A stretch of DNA of 64,000 nt from an uncultured Thermoleophilia bacterium. GTDB lineage: Bacteria > Actinomycetota > Thermoleophilia > UBA2241. Position numbers and translations under genes: made by a program. The stretch is taken from assembly GCA_963702475.1 (NCBI GenBank), contig CAVPCT010000003.1, positions 992,001 to 1,056,000 of the forward strand, read 5' to 3'. Below are positions 24,727-31,147 of the stretch, in pieces. The notes below the pieces were generated by a model. That model worked only from the letters and a program-made list of their open reading frames with translations, was not told where the DNA came from and did not search any database. Numbering within the stretch: position 1 is the stretch's first letter; the number at the start of each line of letters is the position of its first letter.

Positions 24727-25732
24727 ATGTACTACGACAAGGACGCCGACCTCTCCCTGATCCAGAGCAAGACCGTGGCCATCATCGGCTTCGGCAGCCA
24801 GGGCCACGCGCACGCGCAGAACCTGCGCGACAGCGGCGTCACCGTGGTGATCAGTGAGCTGAAGGGCACTCCCAACGGCGAGCGCGCCGAGAAGGCGGGC
24901 TTCGAGGTGCTGGACGCGGCCGAGGCCACCAGGCGGGCCGACGTGGTCATGATGCTCGTGCCCGACCAGACGCAGGCCGTCGTCTACAAGAACGACGTGG
25001 CGTCCGAACCTCAAGGACGGCGCCACGCTCATGTTCGCGCACGGCTTCAACATCCACTTCGGGCAGATCGTGCCGCCCAAGTCGGTGGACGTGAGCATGG
25101 TCGCGCCCAAGGGTCCCGGCCATCTCGTGCGTCGCCAGTACGAAGAGGGCAAGGGCGTGCCGGTCGCGATCGCCGTGTATCAGGACGCCAGCGGCAAGGC
25201 CATGCAGCAGGCGCTGGCCTACGCCGCCGGCATCGGCGGCCTGCGCGCCGGCGGCCTCGAGACCACCTTCGCCGAGGAGACAGAGACCGACCTCTTCGGC
25301 GAGCAGGCCGTGCTCTGTGGCGGGTGCACCGAGCTCGTCACCGCCGCCTTCGACACGCTGGTGGAGGCCGGCTACCAGCCGGAGGTCGCCTACTTCGAGT
25401 GCCTGCACGAGCTCAAGCTCATCGTCGACCTGATGCAGGAGAAGGGCATCGCCGGCATGCGCTACAGCATCAGCGACACGGCGGAGTACGGCGACCTCAC
25501 GCGCGGCCCGCGGGTCATCGACGAGCACGTGCGTGAGACCATGCGCGAGATCCTCGCCGAGGTCCAGAGCGGCGAGTTCGCGCGCGAGTGGATCCTCGAG
25601 AACCAGGCCAACCGGCCGGTGTTCAACGCGCTGCAGCGCCAGGGCAAGGAGCACCTCATCGAGACTGTGGGCAAGGAGCTCCGCGGCATGATGAGCTGGA
25701 TCGACGAGGGCGGCCTGGACATCGACGTCTGA
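24727..25732 (+). CDS. ilvC: Ketol-acid reductoisomerase, frameshift near 25000
   Basis: [44 protein letters not shown]. Confidence 0.96.
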
Positions 25733-25816: not shown

Positions 25817-26224
25817 TTACGCGGCGTTGCGAAGCGCCTCCGCGATGTCCGGCGCGATGGCGAGCGTGTTGCCCTCGCTGTCCTTGAAGAACGCGCCCTT
25901 GTTGCCGCCCATGTCGACGATGCCGTTCACCGTCTTGAGGCCCGGCAGGTCGTACTCCTCGAACGTGACGCCCCGCTCGCGGAGCTCTCGGACCGCCTCT
26001 TCGACGTCCGGCACCGAGAACGAGGCGACGGTGTTCTCGCCGCGCCTGAACTCGGTCTTGTACAGGAAGATGTAGCTGCTCGAGCCGGCCTGGACGACCG
26101 CGCTGTCGGGGTAGTCGTCCGACTTGCGGACCTCGAAGCCGAGCTTGTCACGGTAGAACGTCGTCGCGCGCTCGAGGTCGTCGACGGCGAGTACCGGCAT
26201 GATCGATGAATCCCTGAAGCTCAT
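25817..26224 (-). CDS. VOC (glyoxalase/bleomycin resistance) family protein
   Basis: LAVDDLERATTFYRDKLG...AFFKDSEGN; AGGAG RBS. Confidence 0.9.
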   Translation of the reverse strand: MSFRDSSIMPVLAVDDLERATTFYRDKLGFEVRKSDDYPDSAVVQAGSSSYIFLYKTEFRRGENTVASFSVPDVEEAVRELRERGVTFEEYDLPGLKTVNGIVDMGGNKGAFFKDSEGNTLAIAPDIAEALRNAA

Positions 26225-26464
26225 GGTCACTCCTCTGCTATGGGACGGACGGAGTGTTCCCCGGGCCACCGGCCGTCAAGCCGTCGCGCATCCGTGCGGC
26301 GGGCAGGGAGCGACCATGGGCGCCGCACGGGCCGCGTGCAGTGGACGCTGACCGTAGCGGTGGTCTAGCCTTGCGGGGAGGCGGCGCCGTCGTGGGCACC
26401 GCCGGGACGTGGACGCAACGGACACACGGCGCCCGGTGACGGGCGCCGTCACCGGGGGGCTGGG

Positions 26465-28015
26465 ATGAGCGCGACACAGAGGGTCTTGCTGCTGGGAGAC
26501 GTGGCGTCCGAGGGCGCCGTAGCGCTGGCCGGGGCCGGGGTGACGGTCGATGAGGGCGGCGCCTGGAGCGGCGCGCAGGTCCTCGCCCGCCTCGCGGAGT
26601 ACGACGCGCTCATCGTGGGCCCCCGCGAACCTGTGTCCGCGGCGCTGCTCCAGGCCGGCGTCCGGCTGCGCGTGGTCGGACGGGCCGGCGTCGACGTCGA
26701 GGGCATCGACGTGGACGAGGCCACACGGCGCGGGATCATCGTCGTGCACGCTCCGGGCAGCGACGTCGCCGCGCGCGCCGAGCTCTCGCTGGCGATGCTG
26801 CTCGCCTGCGCCCGGGGCGTGGCGCGGACGGACGCCGGGCTGCGCGCCGGCGAGGCGTCCGGCGCGCCCGAGGCCGTCGAGCTCCGCGGCAGGACGCTCG
26901 GGCTAGCCGGCCTCGACGGCTGCTCGGAGGCGCTGGCCGAGGCGGCGCAGGGGTTGCGCATGGCCGTCGTGGCCTGCGGCGCCCGCGATACCGCGCCGCC
27001 GGCACTGGCGGCCGACCTCGTGACCGCCGGTGATGTGTACGCCGCGTCCGACTTCATCGTCGCGGCCGCAGGCGCGGGCGTGCTCGGCGACGAGGCGTTC
27101 TCCGCGATGAAGCCCGGCGTGCGCCTGGTTGTGCCGGGCGCCGTCATCGACACGCCGGCCCTGGCGCGGGCGCTCGCGAACGGCCGCGTGGCCGCCGCGG
27201 CCGTCGGCGTCGGGCTCGGCGACCACGAGGTCGTGCGCGCGCTCGCCGGCCTCGCCGGCGTGACGTTCTACGACGTCGCCGGCGGCTCGACGCGCGACGC
27301 GCGCGTGCGCGCGGCTACCGCCGTGGCCGAGGCCGTCGCGGCCGCGCTCTGCGGCGGCTTCCCCGCCGGCGCCGTCAACGTACCGGTGGCGGCCGGCGAC
27401 GACGCCGCCGAGCTCATGCCCTACGTCGGCCTCTGCGACCGGCTGGGCCGCCTGCTCGTGCAGCTCTCGGGCGGCCCCGTCGGCGCCGTCGACATCACCT
27501 ACGGCGGCAGCGTGGCGTACTTCGACACCGGGCTGCTCACGCTGGGCGTGCTCGGGGGCGTGCTCTCCGGGCGCGTCGAGGGGCCCGTGAACTTCGTGAA
27601 CGCCCAGGACCACGCCCGGGCGCTGGGCGTGACCGCCACCGAGCACCGGCAGTCGGACATCCCCGACTTCCCACGCCTCATCACAGTGAGCGCCGGCGAC
27701 GTCTCCGTCTCCGGCACGTCGCTGGGACCCGAGCACAAACCGCGGCTGGTGCGCGTGTTCGGGGAGGACGTGGACATCGAGCCGGCGCCGCTCATGGCCT
27801 TTCTGCGGTACCACGACGCCGCCGGCATCGGCGGCAAAGTCGGCACGCTCCTCGGAGAGTGGCGCGTCAACATCGCCCACATGTCCGTCGGGCGCGGCCG
27901 CCGCGGCGACGAGGCCGTCATGGCGCTCACGCTCGACCAGCCGCTGACGCCGGCCCAGGCCGCCGACCTGGTGCTGCGCTGCGGCCTGCTCTACGCGCGT
28001 TCGGTCGAGCTGTAG
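26465..28015 (+). CDS. SerA (PGDH) paralog with degenerate catalytic/NAD sites and intact ASB-ACT domains
   Basis: Colinear with SerA at 29543 along its full length; catalytic motifs replaced. Confidence 0.85.
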   Translation: MSATQRVLLLGDVASEGAVALAGAGVTVDEGGAWSGAQVLARLAEYDALIVGPREPVSAALLQAGVRLRVVGRAGVDVEGIDVDEATRRGIIVVHAPGSDVAARAELSLAMLLACARGVARTDAGLRAGEASGAPEAVELRGRTLGLAGLDGCSEALAEAAQGLRMAVVACGARDTAPPALAADLVTAGDVYAASDFIVAAAGAGVLGDEAFSAMKPGVRLVVPGAVIDTPALARALANGRVAAAAVGVGLGDHEVVRALAGLAGVTFYDVAGGSTRDARVRAATAVAEAVAAALCGGFPAGAVNVPVAAGDDAAELMPYVGLCDRLGRLLVQLSGGPVGAVDITYGGSVAYFDTGLLTLGVLGGVLSGRVEGPVNFVNAQDHARALGVTATEHRQSDIPDFPRLITVSAGDVSVSGTSLGPEHKPRLVRVFGEDVDIEPAPLMAFLRYHDAAGIGGKVGTLLGEWRVNIAHMSVGRGRRGDEAVMALTLDQPLTPAQAADLVLRCGLLYARSVEL

Positions 28016-28074
28016 CGGCCGCGACCCCGTGCGGCCACTCGCCGGCGCGGGCTGTGAATCCCGTCACTACCGGG

Positions 28075-28103
28075 TGGACACCGTCGCTACGGTCGGGTAA
28101 AGT
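28075..28103 (+). promoter_or_regulatory. Sigma70-type promoter
   Basis: TGGACA-17 nt-TAAAGT, with ATG 7 nt downstream. Confidence 0.55.
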
Positions 28104-28110
28104 GCCCGCC

Positions 28111-28140
28111 ATGCGTGAGTCCAGACATCGCCCGTCGTGA
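28111..28140 (+). CDS. Putative leaderless 9-aa peptide MRESRHRPS
   Basis: ATG at the predicted TSS; stop immediately followed by a 21-bp hairpin. Confidence 0.4.
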   Translation: MRESRHRPS

Positions 28141-28187
28141 CGGCTGGAGCGGGCGGGGCAGTGAAGCTGCCCCGCCCGCTCCAGCCG
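28141..28187 (+). terminator. Perfect 21-bp hairpin
   Basis: cggctggagcgggcggggcag-tgaag-ctgccccgcccgctccagccg. Confidence 0.75.
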
Positions 28188-28268
28188 GCTCCCGCACCTC
28201 ACCACGAAGCTCCCCTCCGCCTGCGGCCGGTGCGCCTCTTGCCGCGCCTCACCATCCATCGATCGCCC

Positions 28269-28297
28269 TTGTGACGCTTCCCTGCGGCCTGTAGACT
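28269..28297 (+). promoter_or_regulatory. Promoter for aminotransferase-serA
   Basis: TTGTGA-17 nt-TAGACT. Confidence 0.5.
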
Positions 28298-28370
28298 GCC
28301 GCCTTTCCGCTTCGTCCTCGCCGGCGATCCACCAGGATGTGGGCGCCGCTGTCACAAGAAAGGACCACCG

Positions 28371-29532
28371 ATGCAGAAGCGCTTCCTCATCACTCCGGGC
28401 CCTACTCCCGTGCCGCCCGAGGTGCTCTCCGCCCTCGCCGAGCCGGTCATCCACCACCGTGCACCGCGGTTCACCGAGATCCTCAAGCAGGTCGTCGCGG
28501 GGATGAAGTACATCTACCAGACGCAGAACGACATCATGGTGTACGCCGCCAGCGGGACCGGCGCCATGGAAGCCGCCGTCACCAACGTCGTGAACCCGGG
28601 CGACCACGTGCTCGTCGCGTCCGTCGGCAATTTCGGCGAGCGCTGGAAGAAACTCAACGCCAACTGGGGCGCCGAGGTGACCGCCCTCGACTACGCGTGG
28701 GGCACCCAGGCCGTGCCGGCCGACATCGAGAAGGCGCTCGCCGCCGACCCGGCCATCAAGGCCGTGTTCGTGCAGCACAGTGAGACGTCCACCGGCGTCG
28801 TCAACGACATAGAGGCCATCGGCGACGATCGTCGCCAGGACGCCGGCGATCCTCGTGGTCGACGCTATCAGCGGCCTCGGCGCCAGCGATCTCAAGACCG
28901 ACGCGTGGCACGTGGACATCTGCGTCTCCGGCTCTCAGAAGGCCCTCATGGTGCCGCCGGGCCTCGCCTACGCGGCCGTGAGCGACAAGGCGTGGGCCGT
29001 GATCGAGCAGTGCACCACGCCGCGCTTCTACTTCGATTTCGTCGCCATGCGCAAGAAGATGACCGGCGACTCCGCCCAGACCCCGTACACCCCGGCCGTG
29101 AACCTCATGGTCGCGCAGAACGCCGCCATCGACCTGATCAAGGAAGAGGGCCTCGAGAACGTGTTCGAGCGACATCGGGTGCTCGGCAAGGCCGCCCGTG
29201 AGGGCGTCAAGGCGCTCGGTCTCGAGCTGTTCGCCGTCGAGGACCCCGAGGCCAACTCCGTGACCTCCGTCAAGGTGCCCGAGGGCGTGGACGGCGGCAA
29301 GATCGGCAAGATCGCCCGCGACAAGTACGGCGTGTGGCTGGCCGGCGGCCAGGGCGAGGTCAAGGGCAAGATCTTCCGCTTCGGCCACTGCGGCTACTTC
29401 GGCCACAGCGACATCGTCGTGGGCCTCAGCACCGTCGAGATGGTCCTCGCCGAGCTCGGGTACGACGTCAAGTGGGGCGCCTCCGTCGGCGCCGCGGAAC
29501 AGGTGTTCATGACGAGCACCGTCATGCTGTGA
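28371..29532 (+). CDS. Class V aminotransferase (AGAT/serine-pyruvate type, probable phosphoserine aminotransferase), frameshift near 28830
   Basis: ITPGPTPVP, SGTGAMEA, HSETSTG, DAISGLG, SGSQKALM; directly upstream of serA. Confidence 0.9.
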
Positions 29533-29542
29533 GGGCTGACGA

Positions 29543-31147
29543 ATGAGCGCTGAACAGAAGAAGGTCCTCGTCAAAGAGAAGCTCGCCCCCGAGGGTGTGA
29601 AGTTCCTCGAGGACCGGGGCTTCCAGGTCGACATCGGCACGGAGTGGGACGCCGACGAGCTGCTCGCCCGGATCCCTGAGTACCACGGCCTCATCATCCG
29701 CTCGGCCACGAAGGTGACGGCCGACGTGATCCAGGCCGGCGCGAACCTGCAGGTGGTGGGCCGCGCCGGTGTGGGCGTCGACAACGTCGACGTCAAGGAG
29801 GCCTCCAGGCGCGGCGTCATCGTCGTCAACGCGCCGCAGAGCAACGTGCTCAGCGCCGCCGAGCAGACGATCGCCCTGCTCATGGCCAGCGCCCGCAACC
29901 TCGCCCAGGCGCACGCCGACCTCAAGGCCGGCGAGTGGAACAAGGGCAAGTGGGGCAAGGGCGGCGTCGAGGTGCGCGGCAAGACGCTGGGCATCATCGG
30001 CCTCGGCCGCATCGGCTTCCTCGTCGCCGAGGACGCTCGCGGCCTCGGCATGGACGTGCTCGCCTACGACCCGTTCGTGCCGGCGGAGAAGTTCCACGAG
30101 CTGGGGCTCGAGCGTGCCGACAGCCCGGACAAGATCTACCGTGAGGCCGACTTCATCACGGTGCACCTGCCCAAGAACGCCGAGACCCTCGGCTTCATCG
30201 GCGACGACGAGTTCGCCAAGATGAAGGACGGCGTGCGCGTCATCAACGTGGCGCGCGGCGGCATCATCGACGAAGAGGCCTGGGCGCGCGCCATCGAGAG
30301 CGGCAAGGTGGCCGCCTCCGCCGTGGACGTGTACCCCAAGGAGCCCACCACCGAGAGCCCGCTGTTCAAGTACGACAGCGTGGTGTGCACGCCGCACCTC
30401 GGCGCCAGCACGGTGGAGGCGCAGCTCCGCGCCGGCATGATCATCGCCGAGCAGGTCGCGGCGGTGCTCAGCGGCCAGTTCGCCAGCAACGCCGTCAACA
30501 TCCCGCTGGCGCCCGGCGAAGACGCCGACGAGCTCATGCCGTTCCTCGGCCTCGCCGAGCAGCTCGGCAAGCTCATCGTGCAGATCGCCGAGGGCCCCGT
30601 GGACACGTTCGAGGTGGCCTACGGCGGCGGCATCGCCCGCTACGACACCAAGATCCTCACGCTCGGCGTGCTGCAGGGTATCCTCGCCGACAAGGTCGAC
30701 GGCCCGGTGAACTTCGTCAACGTGCAGGGCATCGCCGACGAGCGCGGCATCAGCGCCAAGGAGACCAAGCAGCCGGCCGCCGTGGACTTCCTGAACCTGA
30801 TCACGGTGACCACGTACGACAAGGAGCGCGAGCTCTCCGTGTCGGGCACCACGCTCGGGCCGAAGCACAGGCCGCGCCTCGTCAAGGTCTACCGCCAGGA
30901 TGTGGACATCGAGCCGGCGCCGCACATGGTGTTCTTCCGCTACGCCGACGTGCCCGGCATGATCGGCAAGATCGGCACCAAGCTCGGTGAGTTCGGCATC
31001 AACATAGGGCAGATGGCCGTGGGCCGCGAGGTCAAGGACCAGAAGGCCGTGATGGCGCTCACCGTCGACGATCCCATCACGCCGGAGCAGCTGCAGGAGA
31101 TGGTCGCCAGCTGCGGCCTCGCCGACGGGCACCGCGCGGAGCTCTGA
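29543..31147 (+). CDS. serA: D-3-phosphoglycerate dehydrogenase (type I, ASB plus ACT)
   Basis: IRS, GRAGVGVDN, GLGRIG, YDP, NVARGG, DVYPKEP, TPHLGAST. Confidence 0.97.
   Translation: MSAEQKKVLVKEKLAPEGVKFLEDRGFQVDIGTEWDADELLARIPEYHGLIIRSATKVTADVIQAGANLQVVGRAGVGVDNVDVKEASRRGVIVVNAPQSNVLSAAEQTIALLMASARNLAQAHADLKAGEWNKGKWGKGGVEVRGKTLGIIGLGRIGFLVAEDARGLGMDVLAYDPFVPAEKFHELGLERADSPDKIYREADFITVHLPKNAETLGFIGDDEFAKMKDGVRVINVARGGIIDEEAWARAIESGKVAASAVDVYPKEPTTESPLFKYDSVVCTPHLGASTVEAQLRAGMIIAEQVAAVLSGQFASNAVNIPLAPGEDADELMPFLGLAEQLGKLIVQIAEGPVDTFEVAYGGGIARYDTKILTLGVLQGILADKVDGPVNFVNVQGIADERGISAKETKQPAAVDFLNLITVTTYDKERELSVSGTTLGPKHRPRLVKVYRQDVDIEPAPHMVFFRYADVPGMIGKIGTKLGEFGINIGQMAVGREVKDQKAVMALTVDDPITPEQLQEMVASCGLADGHRAEL

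Follow-up and report, generated by a model that had tools for sequence, protein, structure and literature searches.

A degenerate phosphoglycerate dehydrogenase paralogue kept beside serA in an uncultured Thermoleophilia bacterium: a probable regulatory pseudo-enzyme

D-3-Phosphoglycerate dehydrogenase (PGDH; SerA) is a textbook allosteric enzyme, and the locus described here raises the question why a bacterium should keep, beside an intact serA gene, a full-length second copy whose chemistry appears to be lost. The locus lies in a stretch of 64,000 nucleotides (hereafter the window; positions 992,001 to 1,056,000 of contig CAVPCT010000003.1, assembly GCA_963702475.1) from an uncultured Thermoleophilia bacterium, a soil/sediment-type actinobacterium whose genome assembly (4.3 Mb in nine contigs) is 94% complete. 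On the forward strand the window encodes a canonical type I PGDH of 534 amino acids (SerA; 29543..31147) with complete catalytic and nicotinamide adenine dinucleotide (NAD) motifs and, upstream of it, a full-length but catalytically degenerate paralogue of 516 amino acids (26465..28015), which is called pSer in this study. A preliminary description of the stretch had proposed that this paralogue is a serine sensor or a hetero-oligomeric subunit. This is a well-motivated hypothesis, and the analysis presented here suggests that pSer probably acts as a regulatory pseudo-enzyme, for which no counterpart among PGDHs has been described so far.

That pSer and SerA are homologous over their entire length is evident from a BLASTP alignment which is colinear from the first to the last residue (245 of 537 positions identical, 46%; 63% positives; E = 4e-143). 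The uninterrupted reading frame and the colinearity, both pointed out in the preliminary description, were thereby recovered, and the same holds for every motif replacement that it had listed. From SerA to pSer, IRS is changed to VGP, GLGRIG to GLDGCS, YDP to CGA, VHLPK to AAAGA, NVARGG to VVPGA (with a deletion of two residues), DVYPKEP to GVGLGDH and TPHLG to FYDVAG. Reduced to its signature residues, pSer reads GPRGDSG-GDV, whereas all 35 SerAs extracted from the order and the class read RSRGGGDRDEH. According to excerpts of a classification of the 2-hydroxyacid dehydrogenase (2HADH) superfamily, the Arg of the Arg-Ser motif is invariant in SerA and binds the substrate phosphate, an Asp in the betaB-alphaD loop sets the preference for NAD(H), and Arg, Glu and His form the catalytic site (PMC6303947). 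In pSer the Arg-Ser phosphate clamp, the GxGxxG motif, the NAD-binding Asp and the catalytic Arg/Glu/His are all missing: in SerA numbering, Arg238 is deleted, Glu267 is replaced by Asp in a non-homologous context and His285 is replaced by Val. Type I enzymes furthermore possess a loop bearing Lys/Arg which reaches into the active site of the neighbouring subunit (excerpts of PMC6303947), and in the alignment with SerA this loop is shortened and uncharged in pSer. The roles which the preliminary description had ascribed to the His/Glu/Arg site, the NAD site and the serine-binding Tyr/Asp/Asn agree with what is stated in the excerpted parts of PMC6303947 and PMC6300728.

Profile searches give the same picture. 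Pfam recognises all four SerA domains in pSer (2-Hacid_dh, 2-Hacid_dh_C, PGDH_inter and ACT), with the NAD-binding domain scoring 60 bits compared to 184 bits for SerA and being matched over profile positions 1-151 of 178. The ACT domain of pSer scores 22 bits and stays under the 27-bit cut-off (SerA: 28 bits). On TIGR01327, the NCBI equivalog model for PGDH, pSer reaches 307.2 bits, which is under the cut-off of 454, and SerA reaches 626.1 bits. Judged by its residues, pSer is a catalytically dead paralogue of SerA, and the automatic name "D-3-phosphoglycerate dehydrogenase" for proteins of this type is almost certainly wrong as a statement of activity.

The losses are concentrated in residues 1-305 (26465..27379, + strand), the degenerate substrate-binding and NAD-binding half. 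This N half is enriched in Ala, Gly and Val (Ala 24%, Lys 0.3%) and has a GC content of 0.83 and 0.94 at first and third codon positions, respectively; the overall GC content of the first half of pSer is 78-79%, compared with 67-69% for SerA. The remainder of the protein consists of the ASB (intervening) domain, residues 306-438 (27380..27778, +), where PGDH_inter matches residues 317-431 with 64 bits, and of the ACT domain, residues 439-516 (27779..28012, +). All C-terminal motifs that had been listed before as shared with SerA are present (ELMP, LTLGVL, GPVNFVN, VSGT.LGP.H.PRLV, DVDIEPAP, RY.D..G, NI and AVMALT). An alignment of 82 paralogues contains 62 invariant columns, of which 51 fall in residues 306-516 and 11 in residues 1-305. 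The eleven invariant positions of the N half (L68, G90, V93, E106, E139, G149, D196, G240, V291, G297 and N305) are all common to SerA and look structural. Those of the ASB domain include D313, L323, C324, G328, N376, N379, E393, P403, G421, R427, F432, E434 and D437, and the ACT segment is near-invariant among the paralogues (FLRY-x-D-x-PG-[IV]-GG-x-x-GT-x-LGEW-x-x-NI-x-HMSVGRG).

The conserved part of pSer includes the serine site. In the PGDH of M. tuberculosis this site is made of Tyr461, Asp463 and Asn481' together with the main chain of Leu468 (excerpts of PMC6300728). In a phmmer alignment against 1ygy_A, Tyr449, Asp451 and Asn469 of pSer fall on Tyr461, Asp463 and Asn481', and all three are invariant in the 82 paralogues as well as in a set of 142, which bears out the earlier statements that the serine-binding residues are retained and that the loss is confined to the catalytic half. 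Four further invariant residues, Gly456, Trp466, His472 and Gly478, are specific to the paralogues (SerA has Ile, Phe, Gln and Glu at these positions). Gly456 sits at the position of Leu468, the main-chain contact, and the four residues may cluster around the effector site between subunits. The anion site that the Grant review assigns, in its excerpted part, to the ASB domain of the M. tuberculosis enzyme (Lys439, Arg446, His447, Arg451 and Arg501; PMC6300728) is a different case. Arg446, His447 and Arg451 are replaced (by Q/E, D and E) in SerA and pSer of this lineage alike, so that the previously suggested variant of an anion sensor is not favoured; the site was also dismissed as a feature distinguishing pSer from SerA, as it is conserved in neither protein of the lineage.

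An AlphaFold2 model of pSer, calculated with the alignment of paralogues, has a mean pLDDT of 91.9 and a pTM of 0.87. It contains a complete Rossmann-like N half of high confidence as well as an ACT domain with the fold beta-alpha-beta-beta-alpha-beta (strands 443-450, 470-477, 483-490 and 508-515, helices 455-465 and 496-506). Foldseek places the structures of M. tuberculosis PGDH at the top of the matches (3ddn_B, 3dc2_B and 1ygy_A, E = 1e-45 to 1e-46), with 3ddn_B being the best (E = 1.4e-46). pSer is therefore predicted to be a folded pseudo-enzyme and not a disordered relic.

With 1-nt insertions being present in other genes of the window (see below), the degeneration of pSer itself could be suspected to be an artefact of the assembly. 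It is not, because independent relatives show the same degenerate motifs (P0002, for instance, is 80% identical and reads GLAGLDGSS, ACGAG and YDVAGATT), and because near-identical short-read contigs span the pSer pieces 26409-26838, 27374-27679, 27499-27849 and 27920-28154 without any gap.

To what extent the gene is kept among relatives was assessed in a sample of the order comprising 89 genomes, all of one family. A gene was counted as paralogue-type if it shared at least 50% identity with pSer over most of its length, or if it was a second SerA-like gene located beside one of 45-48% identity; partial matches of 50% in two genomes (G055 and G081) were not counted, being probable fragments of SerA. 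Such a gene is present in 33 of 54 genomes of the window's own genus (g1; 32 by search plus a split copy in G011 that was seen at the locus) and in 4 of 13 genomes of a second genus (g23), and hence in 37 of the 89 genomes. It was found in none of the 22 genomes from the nine other genera of the order, and in 16 genomes from other families of the class only a SerA of 29-42% identity was found. The gene order is ilvC - pSer - class-V aminotransferase - serA, as established from 40 fetched loci and a metagenome contig (L067), and pSer adjoins the aminotransferase-serA pair in 36 of the 37 carrier genomes, the exception being G023, where it lies on another contig. A locus search with the single protein returned five loci in genome contigs, with one close relative only, and two in metagenome contigs. 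The search for synteny that had been proposed in the preliminary description thus yielded orthologues of pSer beside the aminotransferase-serA pair in genomes of the order. Twenty-four copies span the full length and contain no stop codon, even where identity drops to about 50%, and two are cut by contig ends. Split copies occur in G020, G011 and G023, and G011 also contains a split SerA, aminotransferase and ilvC.

The origin of pSer was traced in a FastTree phylogeny of 160 sequences (LG+gamma). Here, 51 paralogues form one clade (support 1.0, stem 0.35) that is nested within the SerA clade of the own genus, branching after the paralogue-free lineage of G004 and G007. Support values for this nesting are 0.91 and 1.0 at the two nodes that follow, but the placement of G023 as the immediate sister reaches only 0.46. 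Measured from the shared node, the mean distance of the paralogues is 1.23 and that of the single sister SerA 0.10, an about 12-fold difference. As the copies from g23 nest among those of g1, the tree implies that the gene was either transferred from one genus to the other or duplicated earlier, with gene conversion having blurred the signal.

Selection was assessed separately for the N half and the C half from ratios of non-synonymous to synonymous substitution rates (dN/dS; NG86 method with codon bootstrap), which by our assessment may be overstated as dS is understated under strong codon bias. For the window and L067 (77% identity) the ratio is 0.47 (0.34-0.66) in the N half and 0.10 (0.06-0.16) in the C half, and for the window and L068 it is 0.56 and 0.17. 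Six other close and independent pairs of paralogues gave 0.27-0.37 and 0.07-0.20 for the N half and the C half, respectively; over all eight pairs the C-half ratio stays within 0.07-0.20, and none of its bootstrap upper bounds exceeds 0.30. Four pairs of SerA, for comparison, gave 0.05-0.17 and 0.11-0.26, respectively. Both halves of pSer are under purifying selection, with the catalytic half being relaxed about three-fold, and by dN/dS the constraint on the ASB+ACT half is similar to that in SerA. Since the ratios are well below 1 in both halves, the per-domain comparison does not depict a decaying duplicate, and together with the syntenic orthologues it supports the earlier view of a selected, catalytically dead paralogue.

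These data bear directly on the simplest competing explanation, according to which pSer is a functionless duplicate that slowly decays or is merely tolerated, its long frame being easily kept in DNA of 70-79% GC. The about 12-fold faster evolution compared to SerA would fit such a duplicate, as would its lack in 21 of the 54 genomes of the genus, the three split copies, the compositional drift of the N half (GC 0.78-0.79) and the fact that long chance reading frames on the opposite strand are common in this region. However, a frame that has stayed open and colinear over its full length in 24 copies, some of them no more than about 50% identical, is difficult to reconcile with decay, and so are the low C-half ratios with their upper bounds and the invariant columns of the 82 sequences. 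The split copies carry less weight than their number suggests, as two of the three lie in assemblies with other split genes, while G013 has an intact paralogue and a split SerA, and the window contains such errors of its own. A functionless duplicate is therefore considered very improbable.

How the chemistry was lost can be followed in the wider family. A search of 5.8 billion proteins with pSer gave 448 matches among 7998 scored candidates. Arg-Ser is kept in none of the 119 relatives among the matches listed that are 50-80% identical (two of them have a gap there) and in none of the paralogues included in the tree, and the Pro of the Gly-Pro that replaces it is found in 87% of 142 paralogues. 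The other sites were lost in a graded manner: a small early-branching group (P0108, P0112 and P0118, the last being the gene of locus L041) retains GxGxxG, Asp, Arg and His, several subclades retain Arg and/or His, and in the window's clade (P0002-P0010) none of these sites is left. In a library of 1.84 billion representatives the family amounts to two full-length clusters at 50% identity plus fragments, and 133 of the 148 other proteins listed there have the full SerA signature. The ESM Atlas yielded generic PGDH clusters only.

The gene of L041 (4001-5599, genome G105) is an observation in its own right. It is SerA-like, lacks only the Arg-Ser motif (VGPATR) and stands at the base of the paralogue clade; it is the sole SerA-like gene that was found in G105 (2.1 Mb, completeness not given) and is located beside neither ilvC nor the aminotransferase. 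By its motifs it may encode an active enzyme with altered substrate binding. Outside of the pSer family, P0173, P0268, P0161 and P0244 carry catalytic or Arg-Ser substitutions, such as SDRGSGDSGEH or a change of His to Arg, and because of these proteins degenerate copies of SerA may have arisen more than once. Apparent stand-alone ASB+ACT proteins (P0128, P0201 and P0125) were rejected as probable artefacts of gene calling or assembly: P0201, P0125 and P0121 have frameshift-type tails rich in Arg and Pro, and P0128 starts at an internal Met.

The graded series suggests another explanation, in which the N half has been neofunctionalised and now accepts a phosphate-free substrate, another cofactor, or a protein or nucleic-acid ligand in a CtBP-like manner. 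That the first loss, common to the entire clade, concerns Arg-Ser only and that the early-branching group retains the remaining sites would be in line with this idea. The same is true for the intermediate gene being the only SerA-like gene found in G105, and for the N half with its dN/dS below 1, its confidently predicted fold and its conserved Gly-Pro replacement. In the window's clade, however, NAD motif, NAD Asp and catalytic triad are gone, and their replacements vary by subclade. Moreover, SerA has the same residues at all eleven invariant columns of the N half, which look structural, and a new invariant cluster of polar residues is not visible. For pSer of the window a new activity of the N half is hence regarded as improbable.

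The regulatory explanation is preferred because dead chemistry, a kept fold, a hyper-conserved allosteric module, and adjacency to as well as descent from the parent gene are found together in pSer. The most likely course of events would begin with a duplication of the genus's own serA, by which the copy came to lie downstream of ilvC and ahead of the aminotransferase-serA pair. The phosphate clamp (Arg-Ser) would have been lost first, and the lineage of the window would then have lost the GxGxxG/Asp NAD site and the Arg/Glu/His triad. Selection would have retained the fold of the N half and, far more strictly, the ASB+ACT allosteric module with the serine-binding Tyr/Asp/Asn. In its present form, pSer would bind L-serine or a related amino acid at ACT interfaces and would assemble with SerA by ASB/ACT contacts, for example as a SerA dimer joined to a pSer dimer. 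Such a mixed tetramer would contain hybrid effector sites and could respond differently to feedback inhibition. Ligand binding, hetero-oligomerisation and an effect on SerA are features that we infer.

Mixed oligomers with SerA are favoured because paralogues of homotetramers start out as heteromers, as freshly duplicated subunits generally do, because the effector site lies between two ACT domains, and because there are precedents (see below). The pairing would be constrained to ASB/ACT contacts, since pSer has lost the Arg/Lys loop acting in trans and a heterodimer formed through the catalytic domains would damage SerA. A prediction of the complex between the ASB+ACT halves of SerA and pSer reached a score of 0.55 (best of three controls: 0.34), with at least 90% contact agreement between runs and a pLDDT of at least 83 for the partner. 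In the calibration of this score, 58 of 80 solved complexes and 2 of 110 mismatched pairs pass the mark; at scores of 0.60 or less, however, there are only 7 of the 80 solved complexes but both of the passing mismatches. The prediction gives weak support to a pairing of SerA and pSer, and the pass may be a memory of the homotetramer of a relative, as this structure has been solved. Taken together, the chance that pSer is a non-catalytic, serine-binding regulatory subunit which pairs with SerA through ASB/ACT contacts is estimated to be about even.

A more specific version appears possible but should be taken as tentative. Here, the complex would be (SerA)2(pSer)2 with hybrid sites to which one protein contributes Tyr and Asp and the other Asn, with Gly456, Trp466, His472 and Gly478 re-tuning specificity or cooperativity, and in genus g23 the paralogue would supply the Tyr and Asp that SerA has lost there. 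Indeed, SerAs of g23 (L047, L049, L050 and L051) and of three other genera (L053, L055 and L056) lack the serine-ligand Tyr and Asp and have a RARAQVPG-type motif instead of RYADVPG, and the g23 paralogues keep both residues. Going by this motif, SerAs of the RARAQVPG type may be insensitive to serine or may bind effectors in a different way. One g23 genome (G089) has a SerA without the Tyr/Asp ligands, and no paralogue was found in it with pSer as query.

A stand-alone amino-acid sensor or buffer has to be considered as well. In this case, pSer would form its own homo-oligomers via ACT/ASB and residual Rossmann contacts and bind serine or another small molecule, and it would act on a target other than SerA, such as the aminotransferase, the ilv enzymes or a regulator, or simply by sequestering its ligand. 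The conservation pattern, with the ACT triad and most of the invariant columns in the C half, fits this equally well, and the four paralogue-specific residues might represent a newly evolved contact between pSer subunits or a site for a new ligand. In addition, a block at 26341-26374 upstream of pSer, common to the window and L067, is separate from the promoter-like block of the aminotransferase-serA pair, and the heteromer prediction is weak. On the other hand, pSer stands beside the aminotransferase-serA pair in nearly all carriers, its descent from the genus's own SerA favours residual cross-assembly, and no result points to another partner. A stand-alone sensor, and likewise any of the targets named for it, is consequently judged to be rather unlikely.

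Several observations weigh against a role of pSer as a regulator of SerA. The gene is dispensable, with 21 of the 54 genomes of the genus yielding no copy, among them five that are 97-100% complete, and in G004, G007 and G012 it is cleanly absent from the locus, which there reads ilvC - (glyoxalase) - aminotransferase - serA. A heterodimer of SerA and pSer through their catalytic domains looks costly, as it would be expected to cripple SerA. The aminotransferase-serA pair can, by its upstream sequence, be transcribed independently of pSer, because a conserved promoter-like block sits 3' of pSer (28270-28300, +, followed by a ribosome-binding site at 28358-28366); all 25 aligned loci show a block of the type TTGTGA-N17-TAGAAT and a ribosome-binding site (GAAAGGA) ahead of the aminotransferase, irrespective of whether a paralogue is present. 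Among 171 pairs from 19 genomes, the median identity of the paralogue is 48% in the N half and 65% in the C half, compared with 93% and 88% for SerA, and the C half of the paralogue equals or exceeds SerA's conservation in only 13 of these pairs. This gap in identity could be explained by a weaker codon bias of pSer, by an early burst or by older alleles. In the lineage of the window, constraint on the N half has clearly weakened (dN/dS 0.47-0.56), and its composition has drifted to Ala, Gly, Val and Arg. Genomes that carry pSer and genomes that lack it do not differ consistently in the dN/dS of SerA, and co-variation of SerA with the presence of the paralogue was discarded as a line of evidence, as the same is true of the ACT motifs of SerA. 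By the calibration of the tool, a complex prediction that passes at 0.55 is weak and would more often be wrong than right unless the pairing is likely beforehand. Finally, the RNA-type libraries X17 (its RNA status is guessed) and X20 contain sparse pieces over pSer which derive from relatives, and their depth cannot rank the genes. No sequencing run was found to contain more than 0.27 of the sampled words.

The upstream anchor of the conserved gene order is ilvC (24727..25732, +), encoding a ketol-acid reductoisomerase and split by a 1-nt insertion at 25003. The class-V aminotransferase (28371..29535, +) is broken into two reading frames by a 1-nt insertion at about 28825/28826, with Pfam Aminotran_5 matching each piece; in relatives it is unbroken and 77-97% identical. 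The extra base in ilvC is missing from contigs of the public short-read runs X1, X2 and X17 and the one in the aminotransferase from those of X1 and X2, so that both insertions are probably errors of the assembly consensus. Comparable splits of SerA, which is 82-92% identical across the genus, occur in the related assemblies G011, G013 and G098. No canonical serC was found above cut-off with the models serC_1 and serC_3 in the 94%-complete host genome, and for this reason the class-V, AGXT/BhcA-like aminotransferase beside serA is probably the phosphoserine aminotransferase of the pathway.

Between ilvC and pSer, the window contains a glyoxalase/VOC-family gene (25817..26269, - strand; Pfam Glyoxalase). 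This mobile neighbour shifts in place and orientation among the loci and is found in the gap between ilvC and pSer, in the gap between pSer and the aminotransferase, or after serA, with some loci having two copies. In some genomes pSer starts 40-60 bases or less after ilvC. Two candidate regulatory elements were rejected. A 10-bp inverted repeat with a 3-nt spacer (26433-26455, 10-32 bases before the start of pSer) is not conserved in the closest relative, L067, and a match to the Rfam gabT RNA motif (28138-28190, +) is probably due to chance, with 33.8 bits compared to a gathering threshold of 45 (E = 0.006); the stretch is not conserved in the upstream alignment of the 25 loci, where the window lacks a counterpart to it. 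No Rfam family was detected at threshold between 23000 and 32000.

Well-documented cases in which a dead paralogue regulates its active sibling come from eukaryotes, and few are known from bacterial metabolism, with HisZ being the classic case. CtBP, known for its role as a corepressor, can be likened to pSer as a member of the same superfamily whose role is mainly regulatory rather than metabolic. The 2HADH classification lists CTBP as a subfamily in its excerpted part (PMC6303947). CtBP, however, keeps the NAD(H) site and the catalytic residues and has neither ASB nor ACT, whereas pSer shows the reverse, with the NAD site lost and the ACT domain kept. The closest structural counterpart, SerA1 of M. 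tuberculosis (1YGY, 3DC2 and 3DDN), shares with pSer the four-domain architecture, the fold and the Tyr/Asp/Asn of the ACT domain. Unlike SerA1, pSer lacks Arg-Ser, GxGxxG/Asp and Arg/Glu/His and stays under the NCBIfam equivalog cut-off; Arg446, His447 and Arg451 of SerA1 are absent from pSer as well as from the real SerA of the lineage.

More similar in concept are the prozymes of trypanosomatids, dead paralogues of AdoMetDC and of deoxyhypusine synthase (DHS) which form heteromers with the active paralogue, DHS being an NAD enzyme that forms a heterotetramer (excerpts of PMC5201418 and PMC3663545). Like pSer they are dead paralogues of an oligomeric enzyme and are retained under selection, with hetero-oligomerisation of pSer being a proposal. 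They differ in being eukaryotic, essential activators with demonstrated complexes, whereas pSer is bacterial, dispensable in many relatives and only predicted to pair, and its conserved part is the allosteric effector module instead of the catalytic-domain interface. HisZ, a paralogue of histidyl-tRNA synthetase, is the regulatory subunit of the short-form ATP phosphoribosyltransferase HisG and resembles pSer as a bacterial non-catalytic paralogue which provides end-product allosteric control of the first enzyme of a pathway (excerpts of PMC9734150). In contrast to pSer, HisZ is a paralogue of an enzyme other than the one it regulates, and its complex and function are experimentally established. 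A search of full-text literature gave no description of a catalytically dead PGDH paralogue, in agreement with the earlier remark that no such system had been described, and none is named in the excerpted part of the 2HADH classification, the supplements of which might list odd members (PMC6303947).

The principle of a dead paralogue acting as a regulator is already known; what is new is its occurrence in this enzyme family and in a bacterial setting, with an ACT/ASB effector module as the part retained by selection. The pSer family is compact, recent and well sampled, and its ancestor gene lies adjacent. It also offers graded intermediates, in which only the phosphate clamp, additionally the NAD site, or everything has been lost. 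With these intermediates and the adjacent ancestor, the route from an enzyme to a regulatory subunit becomes directly testable with four or five synthetic genes, and pSer could show how ACT/ASB modules set feedback sensitivity. If the (SerA)2(pSer)2 arrangement were true, pSer would be the first bacterial "prozyme-like" regulator of a dehydrogenase of an amino-acid pathway, and the locus would represent a natural experiment in which a homotetrameric allosteric enzyme has been split into catalytic and regulatory subunits.

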